NCBI GenBank assembly: GCA_963823295.1
Contig: CAWGLF010000017.1
Coordinates: 66,750-130,749 of the forward strand
Reading direction: 5' to 3'
DNA from: an uncultured Acidobacteriota bacterium
GTDB lineage: Bacteria; Acidobacteriota; Terriglobia; Terriglobales; Acidobacteriaceae
Length of the DNA stretch: 64,000 nucleotides
The notes under the pieces were generated by a model. It was given only the letters and a program-made list of their open reading frames with translations. It was not told the origin of the DNA and ran no database searches. A program made the position numbers and the translations under genes. Below are positions 16,864 to 36,851 of the stretch, piece after piece. Positions within the stretch are counted from its first letter, which is position 1. Each line of letters opens with the position of its first letter.

Positions 16864-17793
16864 GTGAGAAAGATTATTATGGTTGCGCTAATTACCTGTA
16901 CTGCTTTAGGAGCATCCCCAGGTTTCAGTCAGGTGAAAATGACGAGAGAACAGGTCCTGTTCTATACGTCGGGCTGGAAAGGTGCGCGCTTTCCCGACGG
17001 CCGGCCTAAGTTAGCCGACGACCTGCTGAAACGCGCCATGAATATGACCGTCGAGGATGTCTGGGATTTCCTTCGTGCGCATGGTTATGACAATCAATTT
17101 GAGGGCGGGTGGCAGGCGCTTCATCCGGAAAAATCCTTTGCCGGCAGGGCGCTCACAGCACAGTACATGCCGTTAAGGCCCGATATGGCCGAAGCAATCG
17201 CCGCCGAGGGCAAGGCGGAGGGGCGGGTCGGCGATACCAATTCATGGCCTATCAATGAGCTGCAGCCCGGTGACGTGTATGTCGCGGATGGCTTTGGAAA
17301 AATTATTTCCGGTACCCTGATAGGCTCTAACCTCGGCAATGGAATTGCCGCGCACACTCATGCCGGGTTTGTGTTTAACGCGGGCATACGGGACCAGGAG
17401 GAAAACCGTGAAATACCGGATTTCAACGGGATCTACCGTGGTTACGATCCTTCCGACTGGGCGCAGATGGAGCTGACATCCATCAATGCTCCCATCCGTA
17501 TCGGGCGAGCCGTAGTTTTACCGGGAGATCTGGTTCTGGTTAAGCCGGAGGGGGTTATTTTTATCCCGGCAGTCCTGGCTGAAGCTGCGATCAGTTCGGC
17601 TGAATTTACAGCCCTCAAGGATGCATACAATTTTGAGTTAAATCGCGAGGGCAAGAACGGCGCACAGTTTGAGGGAGGATGGACCCCACAGAAATACGAC
17701 GCATTTGCAAAGTGGGTTGCTGCTCATCCGGGAATGCTGAAGATGCCGCGGAGTGAATTTGAAAGCATGTTGGCGAAAGAAAAGCACCAATGA
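16864..17793 (+). CDS. RraA-family (class II aldolase / decarboxylase-like) protein with Sec signal peptide
   Basis: MRKIIMVALITCTALGASPGFSQ leader. Core QPGDVYVADGFGKIISGTLIGSNLGNGIAAHTHAGFVFNAGIRD...LPGDLVLVKPEGVIFIP matches the RraA/HMG-aldolase fold pattern GDVxVxD...G...G...G.V.dG..RD. Confidence 0.65.
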   Translation: MRKIIMVALITCTALGASPGFSQVKMTREQVLFYTSGWKGARFPDGRPKLADDLLKRAMNMTVEDVWDFLRAHGYDNQFEGGWQALHPEKSFAGRALTAQYMPLRPDMAEAIAAEGKAEGRVGDTNSWPINELQPGDVYVADGFGKIISGTLIGSNLGNGIAAHTHAGFVFNAGIRDQEENREIPDFNGIYRGYDPSDWAQMELTSINAPIRIGRAVVLPGDLVLVKPEGVIFIPAVLAEAAISSAEFTALKDAYNFELNREGKNGAQFEGGWTPQKYDAFAKWVAAHPGMLKMPRSEFESMLAKEKHQ

Positions 17794-17930
17794 TCGACAA
17801 GCTATAAACGCAAGTTGCTCATGCGGCGGATTCATGAGGCTGAATCTGCGCGGATATTTGAGCCATTGTTTGATGGGACGACTTACGATGTATCATTGTC
17901 GCCGGTGAATCTGTCGAGCGGGGAGGCGCT

Positions 17931-18695
17931 GTGCGTTTGCGAGTGCTTGCAGATAGAAATTTGTTGGCGACAGCTGCGGCAGCGCAAGCCGCGGTGGCGA
18001 TCCAGCATGCGATCAGAAAGCATGGCAAGGCCCGCATTATCGGCGCAAGCGCGGCCTCGCAGATCGAGTTCCTGGAGAGATTAACCGATACTCCTGGGAT
18101 CGATTGGAAGCGGGTCGAGCTGTTCCATCTGGACGAATACATCGGCCTGCCGATGAGCCACCCCGCGAGCTTCTGCAAGTTTCTTCAGGATCGTCTGATC
18201 GCAAAAACAGGAATCGTCAATTTTCATCTGCTCGACGGCGAAAAAGATCCCGCGGAAGTAATTCGCCGCACAAATGAGGCCATTCGCGAGGCACCCATTG
18301 ATGTGGCGTTTGTCGGGATTGGAGAAAACGGTCACCTGGCTTTCAATGATCCGCCAGCAGATTTCGAAACTGAGGAGCCGTATATCGAGGTGAACCTGGA
18401 CCAGGCTTGCCGGCGGCAGCAGGTCGGGGAAGGCTGGTTCCCAGATCTGGAAGCAGTTCCCAAGCGGGCCATCTCCATGTCGGTGAGGCAAGTTCTTAAG
18501 GCGAAGGAAATCCTAGCGGTAGTGCCCGGCCCCAAAAAGGCGCAAGCGGTTCTGGCCTGCGTCGAAGGATCCGTCAGCCCGCTGACGCCCGCGTCTATCC
18601 TGCAGACACATCCAAACGCCACGATTTATCTGGATTTGGAATCTGCTGCGCTGCTAAGTCCCGAAACCATCTCCAGGTTGGCGACATCGGCGTGA
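17931..18695 (+). CDS. nagB: Glucosamine-6-phosphate deaminase / 6-phosphogluconolactonase family protein
   Basis: GTG start preceded by GGGAGG. Motifs: [43 protein letters not shown] (GxGxxGHxAFNxP motif of NagB-type deaminases). Confidence 0.75.
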
Positions 18696-19032
18696 GGGCT
18701 TCCGTGGTTAGAGATTCTATCCAGAATTTACGCCGGATTCGGAACTCCTACAGAGCCTCTGGTCCCCGTGCCGCGATGAAAGACAGCGCTCCAGCTTCGC
18801 GATCGTCTTAATAATGCAATCTGATCGCGCTTTCTCTACAGGATTTGCTAATCCGGAATATCACAGGAACGCGTACCCACTCCAGCCAGCTTCCGCCACA
18901 CCCTATTGTTTCAACGCGACGCGATATTCAATCGTTTGACAACTGGCAATATGTCGTCTACCGTGTTGCATAACTTTGGAAGCTCGAATAAAAAGTTCAT
19001 TTTCTACAAATTTGGCGGGGAGGCGGCGATCC

Positions 19033-22000
19033 ATGAAGCTTTTCATAAAGTCTTTCTTAATTCTCGGTGTGTGTGCCATCCTTGCGTTCACGTCAAGTAG
19101 AGCCAGGGCAGACATCACGGGCTCGATATCCGGGGTTGTTACCGATCCAAGCGGCGCCGTGATTCCCGGTGTCACTGTAGTAGCGACGGCTGTGTCGACG
19201 AACGTAAAGCACACCACCGATTACGGACGGGAAAGGCTTTTACGCTTTCCCTGCTCTAAACGTTGACCACTACAATGTCACCGTCAGTCAACCTGGATTC
19301 AGGGATTTTCTGGAGAGTGGAGTCGTGATCAACGCCAACTCTGCAGTTCGAATCGACGTAAAGCTGCAAATCGGCGCGGTCAAGAACACCGTGTCGGTGA
19401 AAAGCGATCAGTTGCAGGTGGAAACCCAGAGCACGCAAATGGGCGAAGTGATCGAAGGAAGCAAGATAACCTCTGTCCCGCTCAATGGCCGCTCCTACAT
19501 TGATCTGCTGGCGCTTCAACCCGGTGTTTCTCCGTATAGCGACGTTGCTACTACGAGCGGCTCCGGTGTTTCGGGCGTAGACGGCGGTTCGCAGAGCATG
19601 GGCCTGCAATCCGTGAACGGCGGTCAACCGGAAGGCAACGGCTACATGGTAAACGGAGCCGATGCGGAAGAAGGCGTTCACAATGGGGCGGCGTTTATTC
19701 CAAATCTCGATTCCATCGCACAGTTCCGTATCATCACCAACAACTTCAACGCGGAATACGGAAACTTCAGCGGCGGCCAGATCAATGTCGTGACCAAAGC
19801 GGGAACAAATCAGTTCCACGGCGATCTATTCGACTTTTTGCGGAACACCGATCTGGATGCCAAAAATTACTTTGCGCCGACTCGCGGCGTTTTCATTCAA
19901 AATCAGTTTGGTGGCACGATCGGCGGTCCAATTAAGAGAGATAAGGTTTTCTTTTTCGGGGACTATCAGGGAACAAAGCAAATTATCGGTTCCACACAGT
20001 CCTTTCCTGTACCTTCCATAGCCGACCGCTCGGGAAATCTGTCGGATCAGGCAGCGGCACTCGAAAGCAGCGATCCTGCGAATAACGGCCTCGGGGTTCA
20101 AGGAGCATACTGGGCATCCGTGCTGTCCCGAGAGCTGGGTTATACCGTGACCAACGGAGAGCCATACTATTCGCCAGGGGTGCACGAGCAACGCTACCTG
20201 CGTTTTTCCGAATGCCATCGTTCCCGCCAGCGCAATCTCTCCGGTCGCGCGGAACATGCTGAAATATATTCCTACGCCCAATGCCGTGCAAAGCGGGCAA
20301 CCATTTTTTCAGACGTCGGCCTTCAATCAGACACTGACGGATAACAAGGGCGGAATCCGCGTGGATACAAACACACGCTTTGGAGCTCTGTTCGGCTACT
20401 ATTTTGCGGATAAGTACTCGGAAGTCAATCCCTACTTTGCGGTGAATATCCCCGGTTTCGACGCCGACCTTAGCGGGCTTACCCAAATGGGAAACTTTGG
20501 TCTGACGACAACCATCAACAATTCCACGGTGAATGATGTTCGCTTTGTCTATCTCCGAGACGTAAACCTGCAAGGGGTTCCAAAGGGTGGATTGGGCGTC
20601 ACACTTTCTTCTTTAGGCTTCAATACTCCCTGGGGACCAACCGGTGGAATTGGCGCGGTCGATCCCGCGTTGGAGGGGGTGCCGAATGTGGACTTCAATA
20701 ATTTCAGCTTTGGCGTTCCGCCAGACACACTGCGTCAATTTAACAACACCGTGCAGGTGATCGACAACGTCACGAAGATTTTCGGGACGCATACCATACA
20801 ATTCGGCGGAGATTTCCACTACGACCAGATCAACGAGCGCAATACCTACGGCCAAAATGGGCAATTCGGATTCGGCGGCCAGGAGACCGGTTACGATTTT
20901 GCGGATTACCTGATTGGAGCGCCAAATTACTTTATTCAGGCCAGCTTCCAGGTCCTCGATTCCCGCAGCAAATATTACGGCTTTTACGCGCAGGATAGCT
21001 GGCGCGCCACGTCAACTGTAACGATAAATTACGGCCTGCGATGGGAAGTCAGCACGCCATGGTATGACACGCAGAATAAGCTGGAAACACTGATTCAAGG
21101 CGAACAATCCAAGGTCTTCCCCGGGGCACCTACCGGACTTGTCCTGCCAGGTGACGCCGGTGTGCCGCGAACCTTGTCGCCGACCAGGTACACAAACTTT
21201 GCTCCACGATTCGGAATTGCATATTCTCCGGATATTGCCGACGGTTGGCTGGGTAAACTTCTGGGCGGCGCTGGAAAGACCAGTATTCGCGCCGGATATG
21301 GAATCTTCTACACATCCATCGTCGATGCCACGGGCTTTGTAGAGGTTGGGGACGCGCCATATGGCCTGTTCTATTCCAGCCCCGGACCTCCTCTGCTCGC
21401 ATCGCCCTATGTAACTCGGCAGACAGGAGTGGTCCAGCCGAATGCTTTCCCATTTGTATTTCCGCCAACCAATGTATCTCCCACGAACCCGGACACGACC
21501 TTCAACTGGTCTCAGGTCGAACCGATATCCGGTTCTGATTACTTTTCTCCAACCAATGTGTTGCCCTATACGCAGCAGTTTGAGTTATCGCTCCAGCGGC
21601 AGCTTGGAACAGCAACTGTAGCTAGTGTGAGCTATGTAGGCGCAGTGGGCCGGCACAATCTCACATTTTTAGAAGCCAATCCAGGAGATCCATCGCTCTG
21701 CTTGTACTTAAGCAATCCAGCAAACCTCGCTCCTGTGAGCCAGGGGAATCCTTGTGGTCCGGGCGGGGAACAAAATCAATACGTAGAGGCCAACGGCACA
21801 GTTGTGAATAGCACGCGTACCAGATTCGGAGCGAATTTCGGCGGAGATTCCTTTATGTCCTCATCTGCCAGCTCCAGCTACAACTCGCTTCAGGTAAGCC
21901 TGCAACATACCGAGAAATATGCGAATTTTCTGATCGGCTACACATGGTCGAAGTCTTTGGACAATGGCTCGGGAGTTTTCGATCCGACCGACGTCTTCAA

Positions 22001-22588
22001 TCCTAGTGCGAGCCGCGCGTTATCCACCTTCGACGTTCCGCAGAATCTTGTCATCAGCTATACAGTGCAATTGCCCTTCAACAACTTCATAGGAAAGGGC
22101 GATGTGGCAAAGCGGCTGACGGCTGGATGGGCCCTTTCCGGCATCACGAGCTTTGTGTCGGGCGAGCCGGTTCAAATTTCAGAAAACGACGATTTTTCTT
22201 TGATCGGCGCCAACTCGAGCTTCGATCAAGCCCAACTACGCGAACAATGGAAGCCGATTATTTGTGAACCGCAATCCACGTTCACAGCAACCGTATTTCA
22301 ACCCAAACTATTTTACCTCGGAGAACCTGGGCCAGGTTGGCGATATTATGCGCCGATTTTTTGTGGGTCCCGGCATCAATAACTATGACATGGCATTGTT
22401 GAAAAATACGGAACTATTCGGCGATAAGCAACTTCAATTCCGTGCAGAAGCATTCAACGTGTTCAACCATGCGCAATTCAACAACCCGTCCGGGAAATTT
22501 CAACAACGGCGGTGCCGGTGGTTTTGGATATGTGACATCCGCACGAGACCCACGCATCATGCAAATTGCGTTGAAGTTGTTGTTCTAG
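19033..22588 (+). pseudogene. TonB-dependent receptor with CarboxypepD_reg N-domain, four frame disruptions
   Basis: - Start: MKLFIKSFLILGVCAILAFTSSRARA-DITGSISGVVTDPSGAVIPGVTVVA.
- The protein is spread over ORFs 18976..19266, 19325..20344, 20256..22382 and 22264..22725, plus an unlisted terminal frame ending at TAG 22586..22588.
- That terminal frame gives the canonical C-terminus NFNNGGAGGFGYVTSARDPRIMQIALKLLF.
- Junctions: ~19210..19222, GGGG 20177..20180, ~22225..22232, and AAATTT 22495..22500. Confidence 0.85.
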
Positions 22589-22691
22589 GAGAATTGAATT
22601 CGAACGGTACACCGAGATGCCGGCTCCTGCAAATCGAATGGAAAGGCATTTCGGTGGTAGCGGGAAGGGATCAGGGGAGAGTTTGCTGCGA

Positions 22692-23559
22692 ATGCTGTGC
22701 CGGTGGCGAATCATCGTCAGCTTAGTTGGGACCTTAGGGGTGCTTTCCGCTGCCTCGTTGCATGCGCTACAAGCCGTTGACGCAGGCCATCCCACAAATG
22801 TTTCCAGGAGCATCCCAGGCCTCTGCTCTCTTTCGCACAAATTGTGGTGTCTGCCATGGAGTCGATGGCCGCGGTGGTGAACGCGCGCCGGATATTGCCA
22901 CGGCTTCTGAAGTGCAGCGACTTTCGGATAGCGACCTGATCGGAATTGTCGAGAATGGAATCTCCGGCGCCGGCATGCCGGCCTTCGGGTCGTTAGGCCA
23001 AACGAAGGTAAAGACAATTGTCGATTACCTGCGGGTTCTGCAAGGAAGAGGAACAGAGACGGCCGTAAAGGTTCCTGGAGATTCACGGGCCGGAGAATCG
23101 CTTTTCTTTGGAAAAGCGAAATGTTCAACCTGCCATATGGTGAACGGCCGCGGCGGCTTTATTGCGAGTGACCTGTCGTTGTATGGATCGCACGAGACGG
23201 CAGCCAGAATTCGCGGTGTGATTACCAATCCCGAAAAAAAACTGCCGCCGCGATCAAAAAGCACCACGGTTATTACTCGTCAAGGCGAGACATTTACCGG
23301 AATGGTGAAAAACATTGATAATTTCTCCATTGCACTACAAACGCCGGATGGAGCATTCCACTTCTTTAAAAAGGCTGATCTCAAACAAATTGATTTGTAT
23401 TCTCATTCACTGATGCCGGCCGATTACGGTGTGATCTTAGATAGCCGTGAACTCGACGATCTGGTGAATTACCTGCTCGACGTAGGGATTGAAGATGCAA
23501 GCCGCGCGCCGAAAGAGCCTCCCAGGCGTTATCGCAATCATGAAGATGGCTGGAATTAG
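22692..23559 (+). pseudogene. Dihaem c-type cytochrome; signal peptide separated from mature part by a frameshift
   Basis: Two CxxCH sites (NCGVCHG, KCSTCHM) lie in ORF 22762..23559. The only plausible export signal (MLCRWRIIVSLVGTLGVLSAASLHA) lies in frame 22617..22880, immediately upstream. c-type cytochromes must be exported, so one indel between 22767 and 22820 is inferred. Confidence 0.65.
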
Positions 23560-23596
23560 CGACACTTTCCCTGATACATAACGGGACATATAGCAG

Positions 23597-24895
23597 ATGA
23601 TGAGTGAAAGCAGAGCAATGGAAAACTTCAAAATGAAACGTAGAACTTTTATCAGATGGGCCGCTGCTTTTCCGCTGATTGCACAAGTTGGCATTCAGCA
23701 GGCGCTTGGAACAGGCTGGGCGGAGGTCGCAAAAGATTCCACCGACAATATATATACGCGGATTGGCGTAAAGCCGGTGATTAATGGACGTGGAACATGG
23801 ACATACTTAAGCGCCACGCTGGAGTTGCCTGAAGTAAAGGCGGCGCAAGAGGCGGCGGCTCGGCATTACGTGAATATATTTGATCTCCAGCATGCGGTTG
23901 GAAAACGATTGGCCGCATTGACCGGCGCGGAATCCGGCATGATTACCTCAGGAGCCGCAGGTGCAATGGCATCCGCAACAGCAGGCTGCATCGCTGGAAC
24001 AGACCCGGACAAGATTTGGCAACTACCGGATACTACCGGCTTAAAGCATGAAGTCGTCATGGTAGGTGGTCGAAGCCCATTTGATAGCGCCATTCGCCTG
24101 GCTGGCGGGAAACTTGTGATTGCGGAGTCGTCCGAGCAGCTTCCAAATGCGATCAACAGCAACACGGCGATGATCTATACGGGTTCAGAGGTTGACGAAT
24201 TAGCAAAGGAGATTGCTATCGCTAAAAGCCATCAGGTGCCGATTTTTATGGATGCAGCCGACGGGATTCCCCCCATAGAAAAGCTTAAGCTATTTGCCAA
24301 AATGGGGTGCGATTTGTACACCGTGAGCGGAGGCAAGGGATTGTGCGGTCCCCAGTCAAGTGGGGTTTTGCTTGGACGCAAAGATCTTATAGAAGCCGCT
24401 CTGGCGAACACGAATCCATGGGAAGGCGCGGTATGCCGTCCGATGAAAGTTGGTAAAGAAGAAATCATGGGATGTCTGGCGGCTGTAGAAGCGTGGTTCC
24501 ATATGGACCTGAATGCGTTGAATAAAGACTGGAACGAACGCGTCGAACGCATCGCAAAAATAGTAGGCACGGTTCCGGGAGTTCAAACCAAGATCTATAT
24601 ACCCAATGAGAATCATTATCCGACGCTGAGTGTCTCTTGGGACCAGAATGCCTGGGGCTACAGTACGGCAGATTGCGCGAACCAGCTCCTTGACGGCACA
24701 CCGAGTATCGCGGTTTTGACCGACGACAATCCGAGCGATGTTTTGGGCCGCAGGCCTCATAAGAAAGCTAAATCTCACGACCCTTCGCACAATACCCTGC
24801 AGATAGTTTCAATGACGTTGAAACCGAAGGAGGAGATCATCGTCGGTAGAAGATTGCGTCAGCTTTTGATGGCTGCCAGACCAAAGAATGCATAG
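23597..24895 (+). CDS. SelA-like (DgaE-like) PLP-dependent enzyme 1 with twin-arginine leader
   Basis: MKRRTFIRWAAAFPLIAQ leader. Core: INGRGTWTYLSATLELPEV, TGAESGMITSGAAGAMASATAGCIAG, VSGGKGLCGPQSSGVLLGRKDLI (PLP-lysine motif of the SelA fold family), RPMKVGKEEIMG. Confidence 0.7.
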   Translation: MMSESRAMENFKMKRRTFIRWAAAFPLIAQVGIQQALGTGWAEVAKDSTDNIYTRIGVKPVINGRGTWTYLSATLELPEVKAAQEAAARHYVNIFDLQHAVGKRLAALTGAESGMITSGAAGAMASATAGCIAGTDPDKIWQLPDTTGLKHEVVMVGGRSPFDSAIRLAGGKLVIAESSEQLPNAINSNTAMIYTGSEVDELAKEIAIAKSHQVPIFMDAADGIPPIEKLKLFAKMGCDLYTVSGGKGLCGPQSSGVLLGRKDLIEAALANTNPWEGAVCRPMKVGKEEIMGCLAAVEAWFHMDLNALNKDWNERVERIAKIVGTVPGVQTKIYIPNENHYPTLSVSWDQNAWGYSTADCANQLLDGTPSIAVLTDDNPSDVLGRRPHKKAKSHDPSHNTLQIVSMTLKPKEEIIVGRRLRQLLMAARPKNA

Positions 24896-28105: not shown

Positions 28106-29404
28106 GTGGCTGGCTGTGAAGCTGACAAAAATGTAAATGACCGGCGATCTTTTATTAAGTTGCTGGCCGCCGCGCCTTTGTTCGCCACCATTGGTTCTCG
28201 TGGTGTTGCGAGCACGGTGGTTGCCGCGGCTGGAAAATCTTCTTCCGCTGATGTTTATACCCGTCTTGGAGTGCGGCCATTTATCAATGCACGCGGAACG
28301 TGGACTTACCTGAGCGGCTCGCTGGAACTACCCGAGGTAAAGCGCGCGGTAGAGAATGCGTCTCAACATTTCGTCGATATGTTTGAACTGCAACGCGGAG
28401 TTGGGAGGCGGCTTGCTGAGCTTTCCGGGGCCGAATCTGGGATGGTGACCTCTGGCTCGGCTGGCGCGATGGCAGTCGCGACCGCTGCCTGCATAGCCGG
28501 CTCGGATCCCAAAAATATCTGGCAGTTACCGGATACCACCGGGTTGAAAAACGAAGTTGTTATGCTGGGTGGCCGGATTGCGTTCGACAGCGCGATACGG
28601 CTGGCCGGAGGTAAATTGGTGCTCGCCCACGGAGTGGAGGATTTACATCCCGCCATTACTTCGCAAACTGCGATGGTCTATACAACATGGCGGGATGATC
28701 GTCTCCCAAAGGCGCTGGCGATCACGCACGCGGCAGGAGTTCCGCTGCTATTGGATGATGCAGCCGGGATTCCGCCATTTGACAATCTTACGCGCTATGC
28801 CAAAATGGGCGTCGACCTTTATTGCTTCAGCGGTGGGAAGGGTCTGCGCGGTCCGCAATGTTCCGGAATCCTGTTAGGCCGAAAAGATTTGATCGATGCA
28901 GCCCTTGCGAACAATAATCCATGGGAAGGCTCCGTGTGCCGGCCCATGAAAGTGGGCAAAGAAGAGATCATAGGAATGCTGGCAGCGGTCGAGTATTGGT
29001 CGCGCGCGGATCTCGACGCTCTGAATAGGGAGTGGAGGAGCCGGGTCGAGCGCATTGCCAAGCTAGTTCAAACGGTGCCAGGAGTTACAACCTCCATAAC
29101 GATACCGAAAGAAGGAAATAGCTATCCGACCTTGACGGTGAGTTGGGATGAAAAACGCTTTGGTTTGACAGTATCTCAATGCGACCAGCAGCTGCGGGCG
29201 GGCGAACCCCGCATTGAGGTACTAACCAGCACGAACCCGAGCCTGGTACCGGCTGTCCACGAAGGCGATGATCCAAAGAAAAAACATGAAGCCCGCCCGA
29301 ATCAGTTGCAAATTGTTTCGATGACTTTGCGATCAGGTGAAGACCTCACGGTTGGAAACCGTTTACGCCAGATCTTGGCCGCTGCGCGTAGGCAAACCGC
29401 GTGA
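28106..29404 (+). CDS. SelA-like PLP-dependent enzyme 2 with twin-arginine leader
   Basis: The ORF is open from 27986 (ATG overlapping the PQQ stop as TGATG). GTG 28106 is preceded by AAGGGAG (28092..28098) and yields a short leader (M)AGCEADKNVNDRRSFIKLLAAAPLFA. Core: INARGTWTYLSGSLELPEV, SGAESGMVTSGSAGAMAVATAACIAG, FSGGKGLRGPQCSGILLGRKDLI, RPMKVGKEEIIG. Start choice is uncertain. Confidence 0.7.
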   Translation: MAGCEADKNVNDRRSFIKLLAAAPLFATIGSRGVASTVVAAAGKSSSADVYTRLGVRPFINARGTWTYLSGSLELPEVKRAVENASQHFVDMFELQRGVGRRLAELSGAESGMVTSGSAGAMAVATAACIAGSDPKNIWQLPDTTGLKNEVVMLGGRIAFDSAIRLAGGKLVLAHGVEDLHPAITSQTAMVYTTWRDDRLPKALAITHAAGVPLLLDDAAGIPPFDNLTRYAKMGVDLYCFSGGKGLRGPQCSGILLGRKDLIDAALANNNPWEGSVCRPMKVGKEEIIGMLAAVEYWSRADLDALNREWRSRVERIAKLVQTVPGVTTSITIPKEGNSYPTLTVSWDEKRFGLTVSQCDQQLRAGEPRIEVLTSTNPSLVPAVHEGDDPKKKHEARPNQLQIVSMTLRSGEDLTVGNRLRQILAAARRQTA

Positions 29405-29440
29405 GCAGGTGCGCACAAATATGGAAAGGTATCCATAAGC

Positions 29441-30664
29441 ATGAGAAACATCCTTATCGGATTGATACTAGCCTGCCAGCCGGTGTTCCTGGGTGCTCAA
29501 ATCCAGCCGGTGATTTCGAAGAATGGACCTCGGCTGCCCGGCGCCAATACGCCCGGAATTTTTGCCGGCGGTTATCTTTACGTCGCGGGTGAAGGAGATC
29601 AAGCTCCGGACGGAACTGTACCCACAACCTTTGATGCTCAGGCCGACCAAGCTTTCAAGAATGTCAAAGCTGTGGTCGAAAGCGCCGGTCTGACGATGGA
29701 TCATGTCGTATATACGCAGATTTACCTCGATAACATAAAGAACTTCGACGCGATGAATCGAGCGTACGCCAGATACTTTCCCAAAGCGCCTCCTGCCCGG
29801 GCCTGTTTAGGGGTCGCGGCACTCCCTGGCACTTCCATTATGGTCGAGGCAGTCGCGGTTCGTGACCTGAGTCAAAAGAAGGTAGTCGTGGTGCCGGGTT
29901 ACAAATTGAACGATCCGATCTCTGCGGGAATCCTGACACGGGACCGTCTATTTGTCTCCGCCATGCGAGGCCGCGATCCGGTAACTGGCGAGGTTCCGTC
30001 GGATCCTGCGGCTCAAGTCAATCTAGCGCTGGACGGAATGAAGGCCGTTCTCCAGGCTGCAGGCCTTGATATGCGCTATATGGTTTTCGTGAATCCCTAT
30101 CTTACAAAGGCAATTCCGAACAGAACGATGAATAAGTTGTATGCGACGCGTTTCGAATTTGGCAATACACCCGCGCGGGCAACCATCGAAGTGACCAGCC
30201 TTCCCGGCGGAGCACAGATCGAATACACGGGGGTAGCGGTCCGGAATTTGTCCGATCGGCATGCGATCCGCCCACTAAATATGGCTCCTAGTCCGACGGC
30301 AAGCCCCTGTGTATTTGCGGGAGATACACTTTATTGCTCCGCGAAGGATGGCTTTATTCCCGGACCGAACGAAGGCATATATGTTGCTGGTGTGGACCAG
30401 CAGCTCCGCCAGACTATGCGCAATCTACTGGATGATTTGCAAGAAGCTGGACTGGACTTCAGTTCCGTTGTCAGCACTACGGTCTATCTGGATAATATTT
30501 CGGACGCTCCCACGGTAAATAAACTTTATGCAACATACTTTAAAGGAAATCCGCCGGCACGCACGACCGTCCAGCAGATAGCTCCGGTAGAGAGAAAGCC
30601 AAACAAAGATGGTCAGTATCCGGGTCTTGAACAAATTTCTTTAATAGCAATGCGCCAGAGGTAA
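29441..30664 (+). CDS. Exported protein with three tandem RidA/YjgF/L-PSP domains
   Basis: 407 aa. Signal peptide MRNILIGLILACQPVFLGA. Three ~126-aa repeats each carry the RidA pattern: G..L(Y/F)(V/C)(A/S)...(F/V).(A/Q)....(A/L)L.N(V/L/M)K..(V/L)..AG(L)....(V/M)V....(Y)L, ending PPARACLGVAALPG (R120), TPARATIEVTSLPG (R246) and PPARTTVQQIAP (R374). Confidence 0.8.
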   Translation: MRNILIGLILACQPVFLGAQIQPVISKNGPRLPGANTPGIFAGGYLYVAGEGDQAPDGTVPTTFDAQADQAFKNVKAVVESAGLTMDHVVYTQIYLDNIKNFDAMNRAYARYFPKAPPARACLGVAALPGTSIMVEAVAVRDLSQKKVVVVPGYKLNDPISAGILTRDRLFVSAMRGRDPVTGEVPSDPAAQVNLALDGMKAVLQAAGLDMRYMVFVNPYLTKAIPNRTMNKLYATRFEFGNTPARATIEVTSLPGGAQIEYTGVAVRNLSDRHAIRPLNMAPSPTASPCVFAGDTLYCSAKDGFIPGPNEGIYVAGVDQQLRQTMRNLLDDLQEAGLDFSSVVSTTVYLDNISDAPTVNKLYATYFKGNPPARTTVQQIAPVERKPNKDGQYPGLEQISLIAMRQR

Positions 30665-30671
30665 CAACTTC

Positions 30672-31569
30672 ATGGATCATACTAAGCTGCGCGTCTTCCT
30701 GTTTATAGCTCTGCTCGCCAGGTATCTTCTGCTCGCCTCTATTGCATGCTGAGCAACGCAAGATCGATCCGACCTTTCTGTATCGAAATACCTCAGTAGC
30801 CAGGGCGAAAAAGTCCGATATCACAACGGCGACCTGCCATTACAAACCGCTGTTCGGCCAGGGAGATCCAGATACAGCTGTAGTTGTCGGTGTTGCTCGT
30901 TACGGTGAAGCAGTGGTCGATTCCAACGGAGCCTGCGCTACAGTTCAATATCCTGATGAAGATCAGGTATACGTGGTGCTCGACGGCAGCGGATCCGTGA
31001 AGTATGGAAATGAGATGGTATCTCTTAAGAAGGAAGACTATCTCTATTTCCCCGCAACAATACCCCATACTTTAAGCAATAAATCCGGCAGATCGCTGAC
31101 GGTGGTCGTTATGGGCTTTCACACGCAAGGATTTGAAAAAGCCAGATTGCCAGAGCATCCTCTGAAGGCGAACATCGAAGATGTACCGACGCGTACTGTA
31201 GAGGGGCATCCATCTTCCGCTCGCTTTCGCTTGCTGATGGGAGATGCCGATAGTAAACGTGACCGCATTGCGGCTGGCCGCGTTCTGACCAGCCTTTTTC
31301 TGATGGAAATAGCGCCGAACGGCACTAATTTTCCCCATCATCACGAACGCGAAGAGGAGATTTACCTGGTGTTAAACGGCCACGGCGTAATGGTGGCGGG
31401 TGGAGGAATGAACGGAATCGCGGGACGTCACCCTGCCAAAGCCGGGGACGCGTACTTCTTCCGGCTCAACTGCACCGTTGGGTATTACAGTGCTCCCGGC
31501 GTTAAATCACGCATTCTCGCCGTCCGCTCGTGGTATCCAGGCATGCAGCAAAAAGGGGCAAAACACTGA
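30672..31569 (+). pseudogene. Bicupin protein; lipoprotein/signal leader separated by a frameshift
   Basis: ORF 30742..31569 has two cupin barrels. The second has the metal motif FPHHHEREEEIYLVLNGHG. Immediately upstream in another frame, ATG 30672 encodes MDHTKLRVFLFIALLARYLLLASIAC-stop (30750..30752). Deleting one base near 30748..30752 fuses ...SIAC to EQRKIDPTFLYRN. Confidence 0.6.
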
Positions 31570-31711
31570 TCGGGATGAGAACGTCAGAAGTATACGAGTA
31601 GTAGCACTTCGGGTAAAGGAAATCTAATCGTTTATACGCGTTATTTCGATAGAACTGGTGACCTTAGACATTGTTCGTTAACTCAATATAGATAGCTGAT
31701 ACGAGGCGCAA

Positions 31712-32968
31712 ATGAATCGTCGCGGGTTTGTAGGTGGATTGGCTGCACTGTCAGGAGCGATTTTTGGATCTGGGACATCGTTGGCGTCGATGAGGCCGAG
31801 TGAGCGAGGTTCATGGAACGGACAGATACGCGGATTAGGGGAAACAGGAGATGTATATAAGGAGTTAGGGCTAAATACAGTTATCAATGGCCAGGGAACC
31901 ATGACTTACCTGGGCGGATCGCTGATGCGGCCGGAGGCAGAGGAAGTAATGAAGCTTGCGAGTCTCAGCTTCGTAAACATTATGGATCTGGAAGCGGCTG
32001 TCGGAAAAAGAATCTCGAAAATGCTGAACCTGCCTCAAGGGTACGGGGTGATTGTCACGTCAGGTGCAGCATCAGCGATCCAAAACGGTTATTCGGGAAT
32101 ACTGACGGGAAGCAACGAGAAATACATCAAACAGATTCCGGACCTTACTGGGCTGAAGTCTGAGGTCATCATTCAAAAAGCACATCGCAGTCCGTGGGAC
32201 CATCAAATCCGTGCAACTGGAGTAAAGATGGTTGAGGTAGAGACAGTTTCTGACGTGCATAACGCAATAAGCGACCGAACTGCTGCCATGCATTTTCTGA
32301 ACCTCGCCGATCCCGATGGACAGATTAAGCGCGAGGATTGGCTGAAGCTAGCGCATGCGGAAAATCTGCCGGCATTTATCGATGCTGCCGCCGATACTCC
32401 GCCCAAGTCTCATCTTTGGGATTATGCCAACATGGGTTACGATCTGATCTCATTCAGCGGAGGAAAGGCAATGCGGGGCCCGCAATGTACTGGATTGCTG
32501 ATAGGGCGTCAGGAGATGGTGAACAATGCGTTATTAAATATGAGTCCGAATGAAGATACTTTGGGCCGCATTGCTAAAGTTGGTAAGGAAGAGATTATAG
32601 GCTTGGCTAAGACCATTGAGTTATATATGGCTGAAGACGAAGACGCTCTCGAAGCCAGCCAATGGAAAATGCTAGACACAATCGCAAATCGTGTCAAACA
32701 AATTCCGGGAATCACAATCACCAGAAATGTGCCGGAAATTGCAAATAACTTTCCGGCTATTCAGATTCATCTGGACCCCACCGTAGTACCCGTTAAATCT
32801 CACGAGGTTCTTCAAAAATTGGCGGCCATGAAGCCGGCGATCATTCTAGGTGGCGGGGAGGGCAATGAGAGTAATGTGATCGGGATAACCGCGATCGTAT
32901 TGCAACCCGGACAGGATAAGATCATCGCCGACGCATTATCGAAGGTCCTGCGCGGACGGGCTGCGTGA
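31712..32968 (+). CDS. SelA-like PLP-dependent enzyme 3 with twin-arginine leader
   Basis: MNRRGFVGGLAALSGAIFGSG leader. Core: INGQGTMTYLGGSLMRPEA, VIVTSGAASAIQNGYSGILTG, FSGGKAMRGPQCTGLLIGRQEMV, RIAKVGKEEIIG. More diverged than paralogues 1 and 2. Confidence 0.7.
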   Translation: MNRRGFVGGLAALSGAIFGSGTSLASMRPSERGSWNGQIRGLGETGDVYKELGLNTVINGQGTMTYLGGSLMRPEAEEVMKLASLSFVNIMDLEAAVGKRISKMLNLPQGYGVIVTSGAASAIQNGYSGILTGSNEKYIKQIPDLTGLKSEVIIQKAHRSPWDHQIRATGVKMVEVETVSDVHNAISDRTAAMHFLNLADPDGQIKREDWLKLAHAENLPAFIDAAADTPPKSHLWDYANMGYDLISFSGGKAMRGPQCTGLLIGRQEMVNNALLNMSPNEDTLGRIAKVGKEEIIGLAKTIELYMAEDEDALEASQWKMLDTIANRVKQIPGITITRNVPEIANNFPAIQIHLDPTVVPVKSHEVLQKLAAMKPAIILGGGEGNESNVIGITAIVLQPGQDKIIADALSKVLRGRAA

Positions 32969-33033
32969 AAGGCGTATTCCGTCGAAAGCGTATAAAGATG
33001 CGAACCATCGAGACAAAAGATTTCTGATCTAAG

Positions 33034-34023
33034 ATGAAAACCATGAAGAAGCTTTCGTTGCTCGTACTTATTATTTGTTCTTTGATTAGTATGTGCATTT
33101 GTGCGCCATTGCGGGGACAGACCGGCAAACGCCGGTTCGAGCTGGACGCGCTTTCTCCAGGGTTCTGGAAACTATTCGATAGGCAATCCAAACTCACCGT
33201 TGTGGCTTCCGGTTTCGGCTTTACCGAAGGGCCCGTTTGGGACAAGGCTGGATTCTTGTGGGTAAGTGACGAAACAGCGAACAAAATCTTCCAGGTAAAT
33301 CTGCGTACCGGACGGAAGCAGGTGATGATTGCCCTGGGAGATCCGGATGGCAATGCGTATGACCAGCAGCGGCGCCTTTTGGACTGTGCCAGCGTGCTGC
33401 GTGCCGTCATTCGGCTGTCTCCGGACGGAAAAAGCTATAAGACTGTGGCAGACAAATATCAGGGAAAGCGTTTCAACAGCCCAAATGACGTGGTGCTAGG
33501 GCCCGATGGCGCCATCTACTTCACTGATCCAACCCTCGATCTGGTTGCCGGCCAAAAACAGGAGATACCGTTTCAAGGAGTTTATCGGATATCAAAGAAC
33601 GGCCAAGTGCGACTGCTGAGCAAAGATCTGGCACAACCCAACGGACTCGCATTTTCCCCGGACGGGAAAAGATTTTATGTGGACGACTCACAAAAGTTGA
33701 ACATCCGTGTCTATGATTTCAACCCGGACGGAACGCTGGCGAACGGACGCATCTTTGGCACGGAGGCGGTGGGCGGACCGAAGGATGGTGTCCCGGACGG
33801 GATGAAGGTCGACAAAAAAGGAAATCTTTATGTCGTAGGCCCCAGAGGGATATGGGTCTGGAGTGCGCAAGGCCACCATCTTGGGACGATTGTCGTTCCA
33901 GAGCAACCTGCGAATCTGGCGTGGGGAGATGATGGTTACTCGACGCTTTATATAACTGCCGGGACATCGGTCTATAAAATTCATACAAAATCTCACGGGT
34001 TTGCACCTTATCCTATAAGATAG
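33034..34023 (+). CDS. SMP-30 / gluconolactonase / LRE-family lactonase with signal peptide
   Basis: MKTMKKLSLLVLIICSLISMCICA leader. Motifs: GFTEGPVWD, FNSPNDVVLGPDGAIYFTDP, QPNGLAFSPDGKRFYVDD, PDGMKVDKKGNLYV, PANLAWGD. Six-blade propeller lactonase motifs. Confidence 0.8.
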   Translation: MKTMKKLSLLVLIICSLISMCICAPLRGQTGKRRFELDALSPGFWKLFDRQSKLTVVASGFGFTEGPVWDKAGFLWVSDETANKIFQVNLRTGRKQVMIALGDPDGNAYDQQRRLLDCASVLRAVIRLSPDGKSYKTVADKYQGKRFNSPNDVVLGPDGAIYFTDPTLDLVAGQKQEIPFQGVYRISKNGQVRLLSKDLAQPNGLAFSPDGKRFYVDDSQKLNIRVYDFNPDGTLANGRIFGTEAVGGPKDGVPDGMKVDKKGNLYVVGPRGIWVWSAQGHHLGTIVVPEQPANLAWGDDGYSTLYITAGTSVYKIHTKSHGFAPYPIR

Positions 34024-34055
34024 CCGCAAATTTCAGAGTATAAGGAGACAAGAGC

Positions 34056-34505
34056 ATGGCAACACGGCGAAATGTATTGAAGGGCGCTGCTTCCATTGTG
34101 GCAGCAGCCGGTCTTACCTCTTCCATGGGTGCAGAGACATCGAAGAAGAAAAAAGTCTATTATCCGGGTGGTAAAAAGCCGGAGAAGACCCCACTATTTT
34201 CAAGCATGATTTCCTACGGAAACTTGCTATTCATCTCTGGTGTGGGTGCGCATTTTCAGGGAGATATCACCTCTCATACGAAACATGTTTTGGACGAAAT
34301 CGAAAAGGAGCTGAAGAGCGCTGGTTCTTCGATGGATAAAGTTCTTAAATCCAATGTATATTTGAGCGATTTGAAGGATTACGCGGGCATGAATGCGGTT
34401 TTTCAGGGTCGTTTTGGAGATAGTCCCCCTGTTCGTACCACGATTGCGGCGGCCGGCCTTCCAGGTAACTCTCTCGTTGAGATTGATGTAATCGCATATA
34501 TTTAG
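34056..34505 (+). CDS. RidA-family protein with twin-arginine leader
   Basis: MATRRNVLKGAASIVAAAGLTS leader, then GNLLFISGVGAHF...HTKHVLDEIEKELKSAGSSMDKVLKSNVYLSDLKDYAGMNAVF...PPVRTTIAAAGLPGNSLVEIDVIA. Single RidA domain with conserved Arg. Confidence 0.8.
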   Translation: MATRRNVLKGAASIVAAAGLTSSMGAETSKKKKVYYPGGKKPEKTPLFSSMISYGNLLFISGVGAHFQGDITSHTKHVLDEIEKELKSAGSSMDKVLKSNVYLSDLKDYAGMNAVFQGRFGDSPPVRTTIAAAGLPGNSLVEIDVIAYI

Positions 34506-34605
34506 TTGTTGTCCGGGATACGACGCGCTGGCGGCCTTAAGGGCTTTTTGCGTTGCTGTTCTGTCGAGGTAAATCTTCTCGGTCAGTTCTATTGGAGTGT
34601 GTTAG

Positions 34606-35430
34606 ATGAGGTTACTTTCGCGCGATACACGGCGGAGTTCAAGCTTTTTTTCGAAAGGAACGACAACCACATACTTACGCCTGAGTAAGGCGCTCGTAGC
34701 TGCCGTTGTTGTGCTTGTATTGTCGTTTGCACTGTTTCTGGTTCGGGCACAGTCGATATCTGAGGTAACAACTCCCAAGAACAACTCCGACGCAATTCTG
34801 GATGCTTTTCGCAAGGTAGAGGTCGCGTCCGTGTCGGATGCGATCGAGCAAGTCTCCGGAAGACGCATGTATATGTCTCATCACATGCATCCTTTATTTC
34901 CAGCTCATTTCGCAGGGTTTGCTGTGACTGTGCAACTCAAAAAAGAAGAAAATCACGATCCGAACGCACTGGACGGCATGCTCGCCGCCATCGATACAGG
35001 GAAAAGGGATTCTGTGTATGTCATGAAGGTTCAGGATGGCCAGGACATTGCAGGAATGGGGGGTCTAATGGGCACCGCCATGGCGGCACGGGATTACGCG
35101 GGAGCCGTAATCGACGGTGGCGTTCGCGATGTCGCCTATCTCCGCAAGATCGAGTTTCCTGTCTACGCGACTGGCATTGTTCCGTCGACCTCCGTTGGAC
35201 ATTACCGTTTCGCGGGTGCAAACATCCCGATCGTTTGCGATGGGGTTTCTGTAGACCCCGGCGATATTATCGTCGCAGATAGCGACGGGGTTGTTGTTGT
35301 ACCGCGAGCCCAGGCGGTGCAAGTGTTGACTGTCGCACAGCAGATGGACTTTAAAGAACACTCGATGTACCCATACATCACCAGGCTAAAATCTATAGAA
35401 CAAGCTGTGAAGCAATTTGGCCGCCTTTGA
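34606..35430 (+). CDS. RraA-family (class II aldolase / decarboxylase-like) protein with N-terminal signal-anchor
   Basis: Hydrophobic segment ALVAAVVVLVLSFALFLV. Core: DSVYVMKVQDGQDIAGMGGLMGTAMAARDYAGAVIDGGVRDVAYLRKIEFPVYATG...DPGDIIVADSDGVVVVP. Clear RraA/HMG-aldolase signature. Confidence 0.7.
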   Translation: MRLLSRDTRRSSSFFSKGTTTTYLRLSKALVAAVVVLVLSFALFLVRAQSISEVTTPKNNSDAILDAFRKVEVASVSDAIEQVSGRRMYMSHHMHPLFPAHFAGFAVTVQLKKEENHDPNALDGMLAAIDTGKRDSVYVMKVQDGQDIAGMGGLMGTAMAARDYAGAVIDGGVRDVAYLRKIEFPVYATGIVPSTSVGHYRFAGANIPIVCDGVSVDPGDIIVADSDGVVVVPRAQAVQVLTVAQQMDFKEHSMYPYITRLKSIEQAVKQFGRL

Positions 35431-35489
35431 AGACAGCTCCAAAATCTGCCTTAAGGACGGAAGCAAGCCTTGATAAGAGCTAGCCTATA

Positions 35490-36851
35490 GTGACACCGGG
35501 TAACATTACACCGCGAACTGTCCTCCCCATTCGCTATATTCTGGTCTTTTGGCTTTTTTTATTGAGCGCTGTTGCATTTCTTGATCGCACGAATATTTCG
35601 ATTGCCGGCAATTTCCTGGCCGCGAGCTATCATCTTGATAGCATTCGACTGGGCTGGGTGTTCAGCGCTTTTTTGGTTGGGTATGCGGCGTTTCAAATCA
35701 TCGGTGGATGGCTTGCCGTTCGGATGGGCCCACGTCGCGTGCTGGCGGCGGGAGTTCTGTGGTGGGGGATTTTCACCGCTCTTACCGCACTTGTTCCCAC
35801 CAATCTGCGTATTTCGCTGATTCTGCTGATCGCGGTCCGATTCGCCCTCGGCGCTGGAGAGGCTGTAGTATACCCGGCAACCAACCAATTTGTGGCCCGA
35901 TGGATTCCCGTTCACGAACGTGGCAAAGCAAATGGATGGATTTTTGCTGGCGTTGGCGCAGGTGCCGGTCTTACCCCTCCGCTGATAGTAGCGATCATCA
36001 CCCATTATGGATGGCGATCTTCTTTTTGGTTCAGCGCCGGATTGGGAGTGTTCATGGGCATTGTGTGGTACTTGATTGCTCGCGACACGCCTGCAAAACA
36101 TCCTTTTATTTCTGTGGGTGAACTTCACCACATCCAAAGCCAATTGCCAGATTCGGATTCCGATCCAATCTCTGCAAACATAATGTCCACCCCGCTAATA
36201 GTACCTTTGCTGGCGCCAGCCAGATTCTCATGGGTAAATTTGCTTACAAAAAAAAACGTATGGCTTCTCACGTTCAGCTATTTCACTTATGGATATGTTG
36301 CCTGGATATTTTTTAGCTGGTTTTATATTTACCTGGCGCAGGTGAGAGGCCTCAATTTAAAGACCAGCGCATATTATGCGATGCTGCCTTTCCTTGCAAT
36401 GACCATTTGTTGCCTGATAGGAGGCGTGATCAATGACTGGGTAAGTAAACGTTATAGTTTGCGCCTGGGTAGGTGCGGAATCGGAGTGATCTCGTTACTA
36501 CTCACAGCTGTTTTTCTTGTGGTGGGCGCCACTGCGCATAGTCCTGAGCTGGCGAGCGTTATTTTGGCAGGTGGTGCGGGGTCGCTCTATCTTTCGCAAA
36601 GCTCTTATTGGTCTGTAACTGCGGATATAGGAGGCCATCAGGCCGGGATTCTATCAGGCATTATGAATATGGGAGCGCAGTGTGGGGGTGCAATCACTGC
36701 ATCTTTGACACCGGTCATAGCTTTACATTACGGATGGGTTACATCATTTGCTGTTGCAGCGGGACTTGCACTTCTTGGTGGTTGTGCCTGGATCGGTGTT
36801 GATCCAACAGTGAACATTGCGAGTCCACTGGCCATGACTTCGATTGATTGA
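35490..36851 (+). CDS. MFS transporter, anion:cation symporter (aldonate/hexuronate-type)
   Basis: 453 aa, about 12 TM helices. FLDRTNISIAGNFLA near TM1 and the GWLAVRMGPRRV loop are typical of ACS-family acid-sugar transporters. Confidence 0.8.
   Translation: MTPGNITPRTVLPIRYILVFWLFLLSAVAFLDRTNISIAGNFLAASYHLDSIRLGWVFSAFLVGYAAFQIIGGWLAVRMGPRRVLAAGVLWWGIFTALTALVPTNLRISLILLIAVRFALGAGEAVVYPATNQFVARWIPVHERGKANGWIFAGVGAGAGLTPPLIVAIITHYGWRSSFWFSAGLGVFMGIVWYLIARDTPAKHPFISVGELHHIQSQLPDSDSDPISANIMSTPLIVPLLAPARFSWVNLLTKKNVWLLTFSYFTYGYVAWIFFSWFYIYLAQVRGLNLKTSAYYAMLPFLAMTICCLIGGVINDWVSKRYSLRLGRCGIGVISLLLTAVFLVVGATAHSPELASVILAGGAGSLYLSQSSYWSVTADIGGHQAGILSGIMNMGAQCGGAITASLTPVIALHYGWVTSFAVAAGLALLGGCAWIGVDPTVNIASPLAMTSID

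Follow-up and report, generated by a model that had tools for sequence, protein, structure and literature searches.

A conserved Terriglobia gene cluster of exported enzymes and a candidate extracytoplasmic route for amino-sugar oxidation and deamination

The window analysed here is a stretch of 64,000 nucleotides from an uncultured bacterium of the Acidobacteriaceae (contig CAWGLF010000017.1 of assembly GCA_963823295.1), and its positions 16864-36851 hold a cluster of 15 genes, all co-oriented on the plus strand, as defined by Pfam and NCBIfam profile searches (Table 1). The cluster opens with an RraA-like gene and closes with a transporter of the major facilitator superfamily (MFS), anion:cation symporter (ACS) type. 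Between them lie genes for a NagB-like protein, a TonB-dependent receptor, a dihaem cytochrome c, three pyridoxal phosphate (PLP) enzymes resembling DgaE and SelA, a DUF4380-like protein, a pyrroloquinoline quinone (PQQ)-dependent dehydrogenase, a triple RidA fusion, a bicupin, an SGL/SMP-30 lactonase, a single-domain RidA and a second RraA-like protein. An earlier, sequence-only reading of this DNA had named the same families in the same order, which the profile searches bear out; its total of 16 genes has to be lowered to 15, the number of names in its own list. The tight spacing that it described from 22.6 kb onward also stands, although its range of about 5-145 nt becomes 4-142 nt, measured from the cytochrome c gene onward with corrected starts. 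The second PLP enzyme begins at the GTG at 28106, with AGGGAG upstream. Wider gaps occur at the upstream end, where 137 nt separate the RraA-like 1 and NagB-like genes and about 337 nt separate the NagB-like gene from the receptor gene. Promoter and terminator counts across the cluster equal the shuffled expectation and are uninformative on operon structure. The cluster and its immediate flanks (14-40 kb) have a G+C content of about 0.50-0.55, compared with 0.56-0.61 elsewhere in the window.

Table 1. Genes of the cluster and the split genes upstream of it, with positions in the window, profile matches and occurrence among 85 compared loci
Feature	Position	Strand	Profile matches	Loci (of 85)
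RraA-like 1, 309 aa, Sec-type leader	16864..17793	+	PF03737 57.6 bits	3
NagB-like, without leader, cytoplasmic	17931..18695	+	PF01182 66.8 bits	10, inside the cluster
TonB-dependent receptor, about 1187 aa if intact, four 1-nt insertions	19033..22585	+	PF25183 pieces in three open reading frames; CarboxypepD_reg piece	40
Dihaem cytochrome c, Sec leader, one 1-nt insertion	22692..23559	+	PF13442 and PF00034, two stretches each; TIGR02603 haem-binding domain	50
DgaE-family PLP enzyme 1, 432 aa, twin-arginine leader KRRTFIRW	23597..24895	+	TIGR01437, NF047797	
DUF4380-like, predicted exported, about 458 aa if intact, one 1-nt insertion	24952..26329	+	PF14315 on the L001 orthologue	47
Soluble PQQ-dependent dehydrogenase, 550 aa, Sec leader	26334..27986	+	PF01011 284.9 bits	53
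DgaE-family PLP enzyme 2, 432 aa, twin-arginine leader DRRSFIKL	28106..29404	+	PF00266 and PF03841	
Triple-RidA fusion, 407 aa, Sec leader	29441..30664	+	PF01042 185.9 bits, three stretches	57
Bicupin, predicted exported, 298 aa if intact, one 1-nt insertion	30672..31569	+	Cupin_2, two stretches	40
DgaE-family PLP enzyme 3, 418 aa, twin-arginine leader NRRGFVGG	31712..32968	+	TIGR01437 155.4 bits	
SGL/SMP-30-type lactonase, 329 aa, Sec leader	33034..34023	+	PF08450 156.9 bits	35, usually adjoining the cytochrome c gene
Single-domain RidA, 149 aa, twin-arginine leader TRRNVLKG	34056..34505	+	PF01042 79.3 bits; weak PF10518 TAT_signal	53
RraA-like 2, 274 aa, N-terminal hydrophobic segment	34606..35430	+	PF03737 125.3 bits	16
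MFS transporter, anion:cation symporter type	35490..36851	+	PF07690 196 bits	11
TPR protein, two pieces	8506-10750	-		
Tat-signal protein, two pieces	10969-13474	-		
GH78 alpha-L-rhamnosidase, four pieces	13596-16827	-		

The cluster is real and is conserved in many Terriglobia beyond chance, since dozens of species-level genomes have the same families beside the PLP enzyme. Close homologues of this enzyme number in the thousands and come mostly from Terriglobales, and a scan of one genome per species yielded at least 572 stretches that match it. The best 80 of these stretches are nearly all from Acidobacteriota (Acidobacteriaceae, Bryobacteraceae and Sulfotelmatobacter), together with one from Verrucomicrobiia and one from Candidatus Cybelea. 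The synteny that the sequence-only reading had set as a check on its proposal is thus found across many Terriglobia and in the latter two genomes. Neighbours were counted in 85 loci within ±10 kb of the PLP gene (Table 1), a short flank that undercounts distal genes. The families travel in modules: the bicupin, SelA-like and triple RidA genes form a tight group, the cytochrome c gene goes with the SGL gene, and RraA-like 2 goes with RidA, SelA-like 3 and the MFS gene. The DUF4380-like gene always lies directly upstream of the PQQ gene, an adjacency present in at least 43 loci. De novo clustering of the open reading frames of these loci returned no frequent neighbour beyond the families of the window itself.

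Export leaders, called by motif and hydrophobicity only, are predicted on 13 of the 15 products, the exceptions being the cytoplasmic NagB-like protein and the MFS transporter, a membrane protein. Sec-type leaders are borne by RraA-like 1 (N-terminus MRKIIMVALITCTALGAS), the receptor, the cytochrome c, the DUF4380-like protein, the PQQ dehydrogenase, the triple RidA, the bicupin and the lactonase. The three PLP enzymes (motif RRxF) and the single RidA carry twin-arginine (Tat) leaders instead. The leaders of the cytochrome c and the bicupin are visible only once the frame is corrected; the N-terminus of the former, MLCRWRIIVSLVGTLGVLSAASLHA, sits in the upstream frame, and in the latter an insertion parts the leader from the body of the protein. 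In RraA-like 2 a long N-region precedes a hydrophobic segment of 18 residues, which may be a leader or a membrane anchor. A pattern search of the cluster products found no lipobox, and so the earlier claim that nearly all products have a Sec, lipoprotein or Tat leader holds for the Sec and Tat types but not for lipoproteins. The RRxF motif is invariant in 9 of 9 aligned SelA-like sequences, and 87 of 94 SelA-like relatives in other genomes carry an RR motif. In a wider sample, an RR leader is present in 41 of 118 full-length sequences among the best 150 cluster representatives of the PLP enzyme. Most orthologues of the remaining exported enzymes likewise have a hydrophobic N-terminus, which only 1 of 10 NagB-like relatives shows. 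Judged by these predicted N-termini, export as a family-wide trait is supported. Several Tat-type SelA-like relatives (P0374, P0380, P0381, P0398, P0407 and P0414; 526-547 aa) have an additional C-terminal stretch of about 100-150 residues.

The three PLP enzymes are, by sequence comparison, members of the DgaE family but not DgaE itself. Enzymes 1 and 2 are 61% identical, and enzyme 3 is 32-35% identical to both. Enzyme 1 scores 153.9 bits with TIGR01437 (cut-off 385.3) and 139.4 bits with the DgaE model NF047797 (cut-off 600), and enzyme 3 scores 155.4 and 125.1 bits, under the same two cut-offs. Among proteins of known structure, enzyme 1 matches 8t7j (2.7e-31) and Salmonella DgaE (7lc0, 2.2e-29), and enzyme 3 matches 7lc0 (3.9e-25). 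DgaE is the best characterised match of all three proteins, which agrees with the kinship to DgaE proposed earlier and makes it their nearest characterised relative. The PLP lysine (Lys213 in DgaE numbering) and the arginine that binds the alpha-carboxylate (Arg226) are invariant in the two alignments examined; in enzyme 1 they are K247, within an SGGK motif, and R261. SGGK is present in 94 of 94 SelA-like relatives.

Despite this shared core, two features of DgaE are missing. Arg301, Arg332 and Arg346 of DgaE have been proposed to dock the 6-phosphate of the substrate, and His162-His163 is strictly conserved, with His163 as the proton donor to C3 (PMC9529869). The proteins were aligned with Salmonella DgaE and with homologues from plasmids of Clostridioides difficile and Enterococcus faecalis, the C-terminal arginines being mapped through the latter two. 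At the three arginine positions enzymes 1 and 2 have T, K and M and enzyme 3 has A, G and I, while the C. difficile and E. faecalis homologues have arginine. Every Tat-type protein has a deletion in place of the His162-His163 loop, which reads KSHHCVQK in Salmonella DgaE and the two plasmid homologues, and the SHH motif is found in 0 of 94 SelA-like relatives. The missing phosphate-binding cluster fits an unphosphorylated substrate, as would be expected in a kinase-free compartment, and the loss of the proton-donor loop fits release of an enamine to a co-exported RidA; the want of an internal proton donor would explain why RidA partners are encoded in the cluster. In the DgaE literature the H163A mutant retains full activity and accumulates a transient intermediate. 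Cytoplasmic DgaE-family genes of the C. difficile plasmid (L086, 307-6903) and the E. faecalis plasmid (L087, 146-6861) neighbour genes for a phosphotransferase system (PTS) EIIC component, a MupG-family protein, a deacetylase and a sugar kinase, and the C. difficile record also annotates a 2-keto-3-deoxy-gluconate-6-phosphate (KDGP) aldolase. These clusters suggest a muramic-acid or amino-sugar-acid route in Firmicutes, and their gene contexts support amino-sugar acids as the general theme of the DgaE family.

The triple RidA scores 197.2 bits with TIGR00004 over three stretches, above the cut-off of 106.25, and has the motifs PARA, PARA and PART; the single RidA has PVRT(T). The catalytic arginine (Arg105 of bacterial RidA) is kept, as the earlier reading of these proteins as enamine/imine hydrolases would require: domains 2 and 3 align with the arginine of PSP/UK114, and the P-x-R arginine of domain 1 and of the single RidA was read directly from the sequence. 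RidA functions as a trimer whose active sites lie at the interfaces between its subunits. For this reason the triple RidA could be a single-chain trimer that is exportable in the unfolded state via Sec, with the single-domain RidA leaving via Tat.

The PQQ dehydrogenase finds its best model in TIGR04528, the uncharacterised acido-empty-quinoprotein A family, with 544.8 bits under a cut-off of 650, and it scores 480.6 bits with the methanol/ethanol family TIGR03075, just at the threshold of 480.05. Its best relatives of known structure are quinohaemoprotein alcohol dehydrogenase ADH-IIB, PedH and XoxF (1kv9, 2.7e-96; 6zcv, 7e-90). The segment HDVYDYDG aligns with HDGWDFDG of PedH and thereby supplies the lanthanide-type aspartate, and D-[YFW]-D recurs in 44 of 48 orthologues. 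The vicinal Cys-Cys ring is absent, with Ala-Ser at the aligned positions and DDA[SA][GA]H.. in the orthologues. From these residues, the enzyme is probably of the lanthanide type. Elsewhere in the window, at 48625-50905 on the minus strand, lies a gene for a second PQQ dehydrogenase, of the quinohaemoprotein type, to which a cytochrome c domain is fused; this gene is apparently split between overlapping open reading frames at 48625-50160 and 49886-50905.

The proteins encoded around the dehydrogenase gene bear on its substrate. The DUF4380-like protein scores 22.8 bits with PF14315, measured on the intact orthologue in locus L001 and under the cut-off of 29.4. An AlphaFold model of a homologue (P0122; pLDDT 65) has an additional C-terminal beta domain, and its best fold matches are galactose mutarotases (GalM, YeaD and HI1317; E about 1e-6, target TM-score 0.45-0.64). 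The model thus suggests a mutarotase-like fold, which would fit an aldose substrate. The lactonase scores 156.9 bits with PF08450, against a gathering cut-off of 26.3. Since a mutarotase-like protein, a lactonase and a cytochrome c surround the dehydrogenase, they point to oxidation at C1 of a cyclic aldose, that is, of a cyclic hemiacetal.

A sequence search of the PDB was uninformative for the bicupin, and TIGR03214 (ura-cupin) gives 25.2 bits, far under its cut-off of 200. An AlphaFold model (pLDDT 65) is nearest in Foldseek to bicupins of the ureidoglycine aminohydrolase type, BacB and AerE, and the top matches, which include 1sfn, 1sq4, 4e2q and 1rc6, show likeness at the level of fold only. 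Both structure models were used for fold class only. BacB and AerE act on 2-oxo acids, and it is plausible from the modelled fold that the bicupin acts on the imine or keto-acid product. RraA-like 1 has the motif IRDQEE, and its PDB search, in which 5x15 was the best match and the aldolase 3noj scored 2.7e-6, was judged uninformative. RraA-like 2 matches 3noj, a 4-hydroxy-4-methyl-2-oxoglutarate/4-carboxy-4-hydroxy-2-oxoadipate (HMG/CHA) aldolase, at 1.2e-17, and 10 of 10 orthologues have G[VI]RD; in E. coli RraA proper, RD is replaced by RQ. For the aldolase function assigned earlier the features are mixed: RraA-like 2 keeps the Arg123-Asp124 dyad of HMG/CHA aldolase, but Asp102 is replaced by Gly and its scores of 114.5 bits with NF006731 (cut-off 179) and 105.3 bits with TIGR02798 (cut-off 304.5) fall short. 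The NagB-like protein (TIGR00502 nagB, 128.5 bits, under 236.9) is a member of the NagB/Pgl superfamily, which holds glucosamine-6-phosphate deaminase and 6-phosphogluconolactonase, and its specificity is uncertain at this level of similarity. The MFS transporter scores 203.8 bits with the D-galactonate transporter subfamily TIGR00893, under the cut-off of 395.

Four genes of the cluster are broken in this assembly. Compared with locus L001 (GCA_963823595.1), which has the identical gene order at 82-91% DNA identity, the coding regions of the window hold seven single-base insertions, all of them +1 and none located in a long homopolymer. Four fall in the receptor gene (at about 19217, 20173, 22228 and 22490), which consequently occupies four reading frames, and the cytochrome c (near 22800), DUF4380-like (about 25399) and bicupin (about 30720) genes are each split once. 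All four are unbroken in L001, where they encode 1187, 287, 458 and 298 aa, respectively. The minus-strand genes upstream (8506-16827) are also split between overlapping reading frames. Because the flanking genes are split as well and all seven cluster breaks are +1, the simplest reading of the alignment is that the breaks are errors in an indel-prone assembly rather than decay of the receptor. A true receptor pseudogene was considered and is unlikely, since the rhamnosidase, the TPR protein and the Tat-signal protein are split too and every break in the cluster is +1. The receptor itself, with its N-terminal leader, is of the Acidobacterial CarboxypepD_reg/OMP_b-brl_4 type. Downstream of the cluster are a fragment of an M50-like peptidase (36869-37357, minus strand) and, at 39389-48575, genes for a cupin+DUF2249 protein, a Crp-family regulator, a second MFS transporter, a GH5 cellulase-family protein, a SASA-type carbohydrate esterase, an Amidohydro_2 protein and a short-chain dehydrogenase/reductase (SDR).

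Taken together, these features can be arranged as a pathway. The substrate would be an aldose, with a 2-amino-2-deoxy-aldose (glucosamine or galactosamine, for example) as the most parsimonious choice; it would enter through the TonB-dependent receptor, and chitosan, chitin and fungal or bacterial walls are candidate sources. The mutarotase-like DUF4380 protein would provide the correct anomer, and the soluble, probably lanthanide-type PQQ dehydrogenase would oxidise C1 and pass the electrons to the dihaem cytochrome c. The SGL/SMP-30 lactonase would convert the lactone to a 2-amino-aldonate, a D-alpha-amino-beta-hydroxy acid, from which the Tat-exported DgaE-like lyases would remove the beta-hydroxyl; because they lack the proton-donor histidine of DgaE, an enamine or imine would be set free. 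The exported triple RidA and the Tat-type RidA would hydrolyse it to a 2-keto-3-deoxy-aldonate and ammonium, and the keto acid would be processed by the bicupin and the RraA-like proteins of class II aldolase type or be imported by the MFS transporter. The order of these steps, like the part assigned to the receptor, the bicupin and the RraA-like proteins, is inferred from gene content. An amino-aldonate would be the most parsimonious link between the modules, and an amino-aldose is favoured as the substrate because a 2-amino-aldonate is the simplest compound that requires both aldose oxidation and a lyase for alpha-amino-beta-hydroxy acids.

The losses in the DgaE-like proteins (phosphate arginines and His-His loop) and the mutarotase-like DUF4380 protein strengthen the pathway that the sequence-only reading had outlined, and its conservation, predicted export and enzyme families stand. 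A strictly linear order is less well borne out, given the loci that have a bicupin and SelA-like pair alone and the Bryobacteraceae variant without the PQQ module. That this conserved Terriglobia cluster serves extracytoplasmic catabolism in which sugar oxidation is coupled to PLP-dependent deamination of a 2-amino-2-deoxy-aldose is, in our estimate, an evenly balanced proposition. Several observations weigh on the other side of the balance. A bicupin and SelA-like pair without PQQ, SGL or cytochrome c genes is found in at least 10 loci of Terriglobia (L021, L024-L027, L029, L031, L032, L049 and L050). In a variant from Bryobacteraceae (L028, L037 and L057, around positions 1700-16000 of the loci), genes of the enolase superfamily, a TIM barrel and amidohydrolases stand in place of the PQQ module. 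The order there is histidine kinase, response regulator, TonB receptor, enolase-superfamily protein, xylose isomerase-like TIM barrel, SelA-like, Amidohydro_2, Amidohydro_1, Amidohydro_2, triple RidA and MFS, and the substrate of this variant may be a related compound in N-acylated or lactone form. The lone pair and the PQQ-less variant therefore show oxidation and deamination to be separable. A direct link to amino sugars is confined to the NagB-like gene, in 10 of 85 loci, and the deacetylase, SIS or ROK genes that lie nearby now and then contribute little more. The NagB, RraA-like and MFS genes are present in just 10-16 of the 85 loci, for which the short flank is partly responsible. Scores of the PLP, aldolase and NagB proteins all lie under the curated family cut-offs, identity in the C-terminal alignment with DgaE is low, so that the mapping of the arginines is approximate, and both structure models are of moderate confidence (pLDDT 65), with fold matches that do not establish activity.

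The separability of the modules also supports a different account, in which two independent periplasmic systems share the locus: general oxidation of aldoses or alcohols by the mutarotase-like protein, PQQ dehydrogenase, cytochrome c and lactonase, giving ordinary aldonates, and deamination of D-hydroxy-amino acids such as free D-serine or D-threonine by the bicupin, SelA-like and RidA proteins. Besides the lone pair in many Terriglobia and the PQQ-less variant, it can draw on the rhamnosidase and other glycosidases that flank the cluster. DgaE acts on a D-amino acid, according to titles cited in PMC9529869, and the glucosaminate deaminase OngC also deaminates D-Ser and D-Thr (PMC9537276). However, the PQQ (53/85), cytochrome c (50/85), DUF4380 (47/85) and SGL (35/85) genes stay with the SelA-like and triple RidA genes in many species despite repeated rearrangement, which chance linkage would not survive, and no simpler compound than a 2-amino-aldonate would call for both modules; we regard two unrelated systems as unlikely. 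A narrower alternative, compatible with amino-aldose catabolism and leaving the rest of the pathway unchanged, assigns to the receptor the import of the cofactor of the dehydrogenase, either PQQ, as by PqqU in E. coli, or a lanthanide chelate. It would suit a dehydrogenase whose best NCBIfam match is acido-empty-quinoprotein group A and which has the lanthanide-type D-x-D, a motif shared by 44 of 48 orthologues. TonB-dependent transporters are reported to import PQQ widely (PMC12124388), and the receptor is present in only 40 of the 85 loci. At about 1190 aa, and of the CarboxypepD_reg/OMP_b-brl_4 type, the receptor speaks against this role, which seems quite improbable. PqqU is a smaller receptor.

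The source annotations offer yet another identity for the SelA-like proteins, as they include "L-seryl-tRNA(Ser) seleniumtransferase", and weak matches to PF03841 and PF00266 could be read as pointing to selenocysteine synthases or enzymes of the cysteine desulfurase type. The selA model TIGR00474 gives 21.5 and 42 bits against a cut-off of 267.9, the match spanning the PLP core only, and SufS and CsdA models give 22-28 bits against cut-offs of 475-661, whereas the DgaE-family models score far higher (154-155 bits). In addition, twin-arginine leaders are incompatible with a tRNA substrate. The annotation as selenocysteine synthase was rejected on the selA scores of 21-42 bits, the Tat leaders and the better DgaE-family models, and practically no weight is left for either identity.

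The proposed amino-aldose deamination outside the cytoplasm can be compared with several characterised systems. The cluster enzymes share the PLP fold family of Salmonella DgaE, including Lys213 and Arg226, and in both cases a 2-amino-aldonate is expected to undergo beta-elimination and deamination, with the resulting 2-keto-3-deoxy acid passing to an aldolase. Unlike the cluster enzymes with their Tat leaders, DgaE is cytoplasmic, is fed by a PTS and acts on a 6-phosphate substrate. The cluster enzymes lack both the Arg301/332/346 cluster and the His162/His163 loop, reach 139 bits where the DgaE cut-off is 600, have RidA partners in place of the internal proton donor, and are accompanied by an aldolase candidate that is RraA-like instead of DgaF-like.

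A precedent for the chemistry is the ong pathway of Pseudoalteromonas prydzensis, in which a PLP enzyme converts unphosphorylated D-glucosaminate to 2-keto-3-deoxygluconate (KDG) and ammonia and RidA is required for growth (PMC9537276). By analogy, it offers precedent for a RidA-dependent deaminase of unphosphorylated glucosaminate, and it also resembles the cluster in its TonB-dependent receptors and in an acid product that is taken up or processed further (PMC9537276). The two also differ. OngC is a fold-type III PLP enzyme, as opposed to the DgaE/SelA fold of the cluster enzymes; deacetylation and deamination are cytoplasmic in the ong pathway; its sugar acid comes from the action of a lytic polysaccharide monooxygenase (LPMO), where the cluster has a PQQ dehydrogenase and a lactonase; and it has no cytochrome c, bicupin or RraA-like protein (PMC9537276).

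Periplasmic aldose oxidation by PQQ enzymes is represented by the membrane glucose dehydrogenase and gluconolactonase of pseudomonads and acetic acid bacteria. With these systems, taken together with the lanthanide-dependent dehydrogenases of the PedH/XoxF type, the cluster dehydrogenase shares the eight-bladed PQQ propeller, the D-x-D lanthanide aspartate and a cytochrome c gene nearby. It differs in the missing vicinal Cys-Cys, in a metal-binding Glu that is replaced by Asp, in a gene that is always coupled to DUF4380 and in acido-empty-quinoprotein A as its best model. Export of a folded, PLP-loaded enzyme to the periplasm by Tat is known for PvdN of pyoverdine maturation, as predicted for the cluster PLP enzymes; PvdN, in contrast, modifies a siderophore side chain, lies outside the DgaE family and is not known to have a RidA partner.

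On this comparison, the cluster would be a variant of known glucosaminate catabolism, with the substrate assigned from context, that is conserved in abundant soil bacteria. A literature search that covered the make-up of the cluster, DUF4380, exported RidA and the PQQ enzymes of Acidobacteria turned up no paper on the cluster, on DUF4380 or on exported RidA, and papers on PQQ and lanthanides were silent on this context; its coverage was incomplete, so that this is absence of evidence only. The full proposal, that the whole pathway of amino-sugar oxidation and deamination lies in the periplasm, with lanthanide/PQQ oxidation feeding the cytochrome c, Tat-exported DgaE-like lyases and exported RidA quenching the enamine, is put forward tentatively, with the doubts somewhat outweighing the support. 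A cultured carrier exists in Paracidobacterium acidisoli 4G-K13 (locus L012), so the reading is directly testable.

Acidobacteria are among the most abundant soil bacteria and are biochemically poorly understood, and amino sugars make up a large pool of soil organic nitrogen. If the reading is correct, it would give a function to several unnamed or misnamed families, namely the "selenocysteine synthase-like" PLP enzymes, DUF4380, the "acido-empty" quinoproteins and exported RidA. PLP-dependent elimination and the quenching of enamines by RidA would take place outside the cytoplasm, which would make this the first "damage control" system for reactive enamines beyond that compartment. Lanthanide/PQQ respiration would be linked to nitrogen release, with ammonium liberated extracytoplasmically. 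As the cluster is common in Terriglobia, it would then represent a previously overlooked way in which amino-sugar nitrogen is mineralised in acidic soils and peat.

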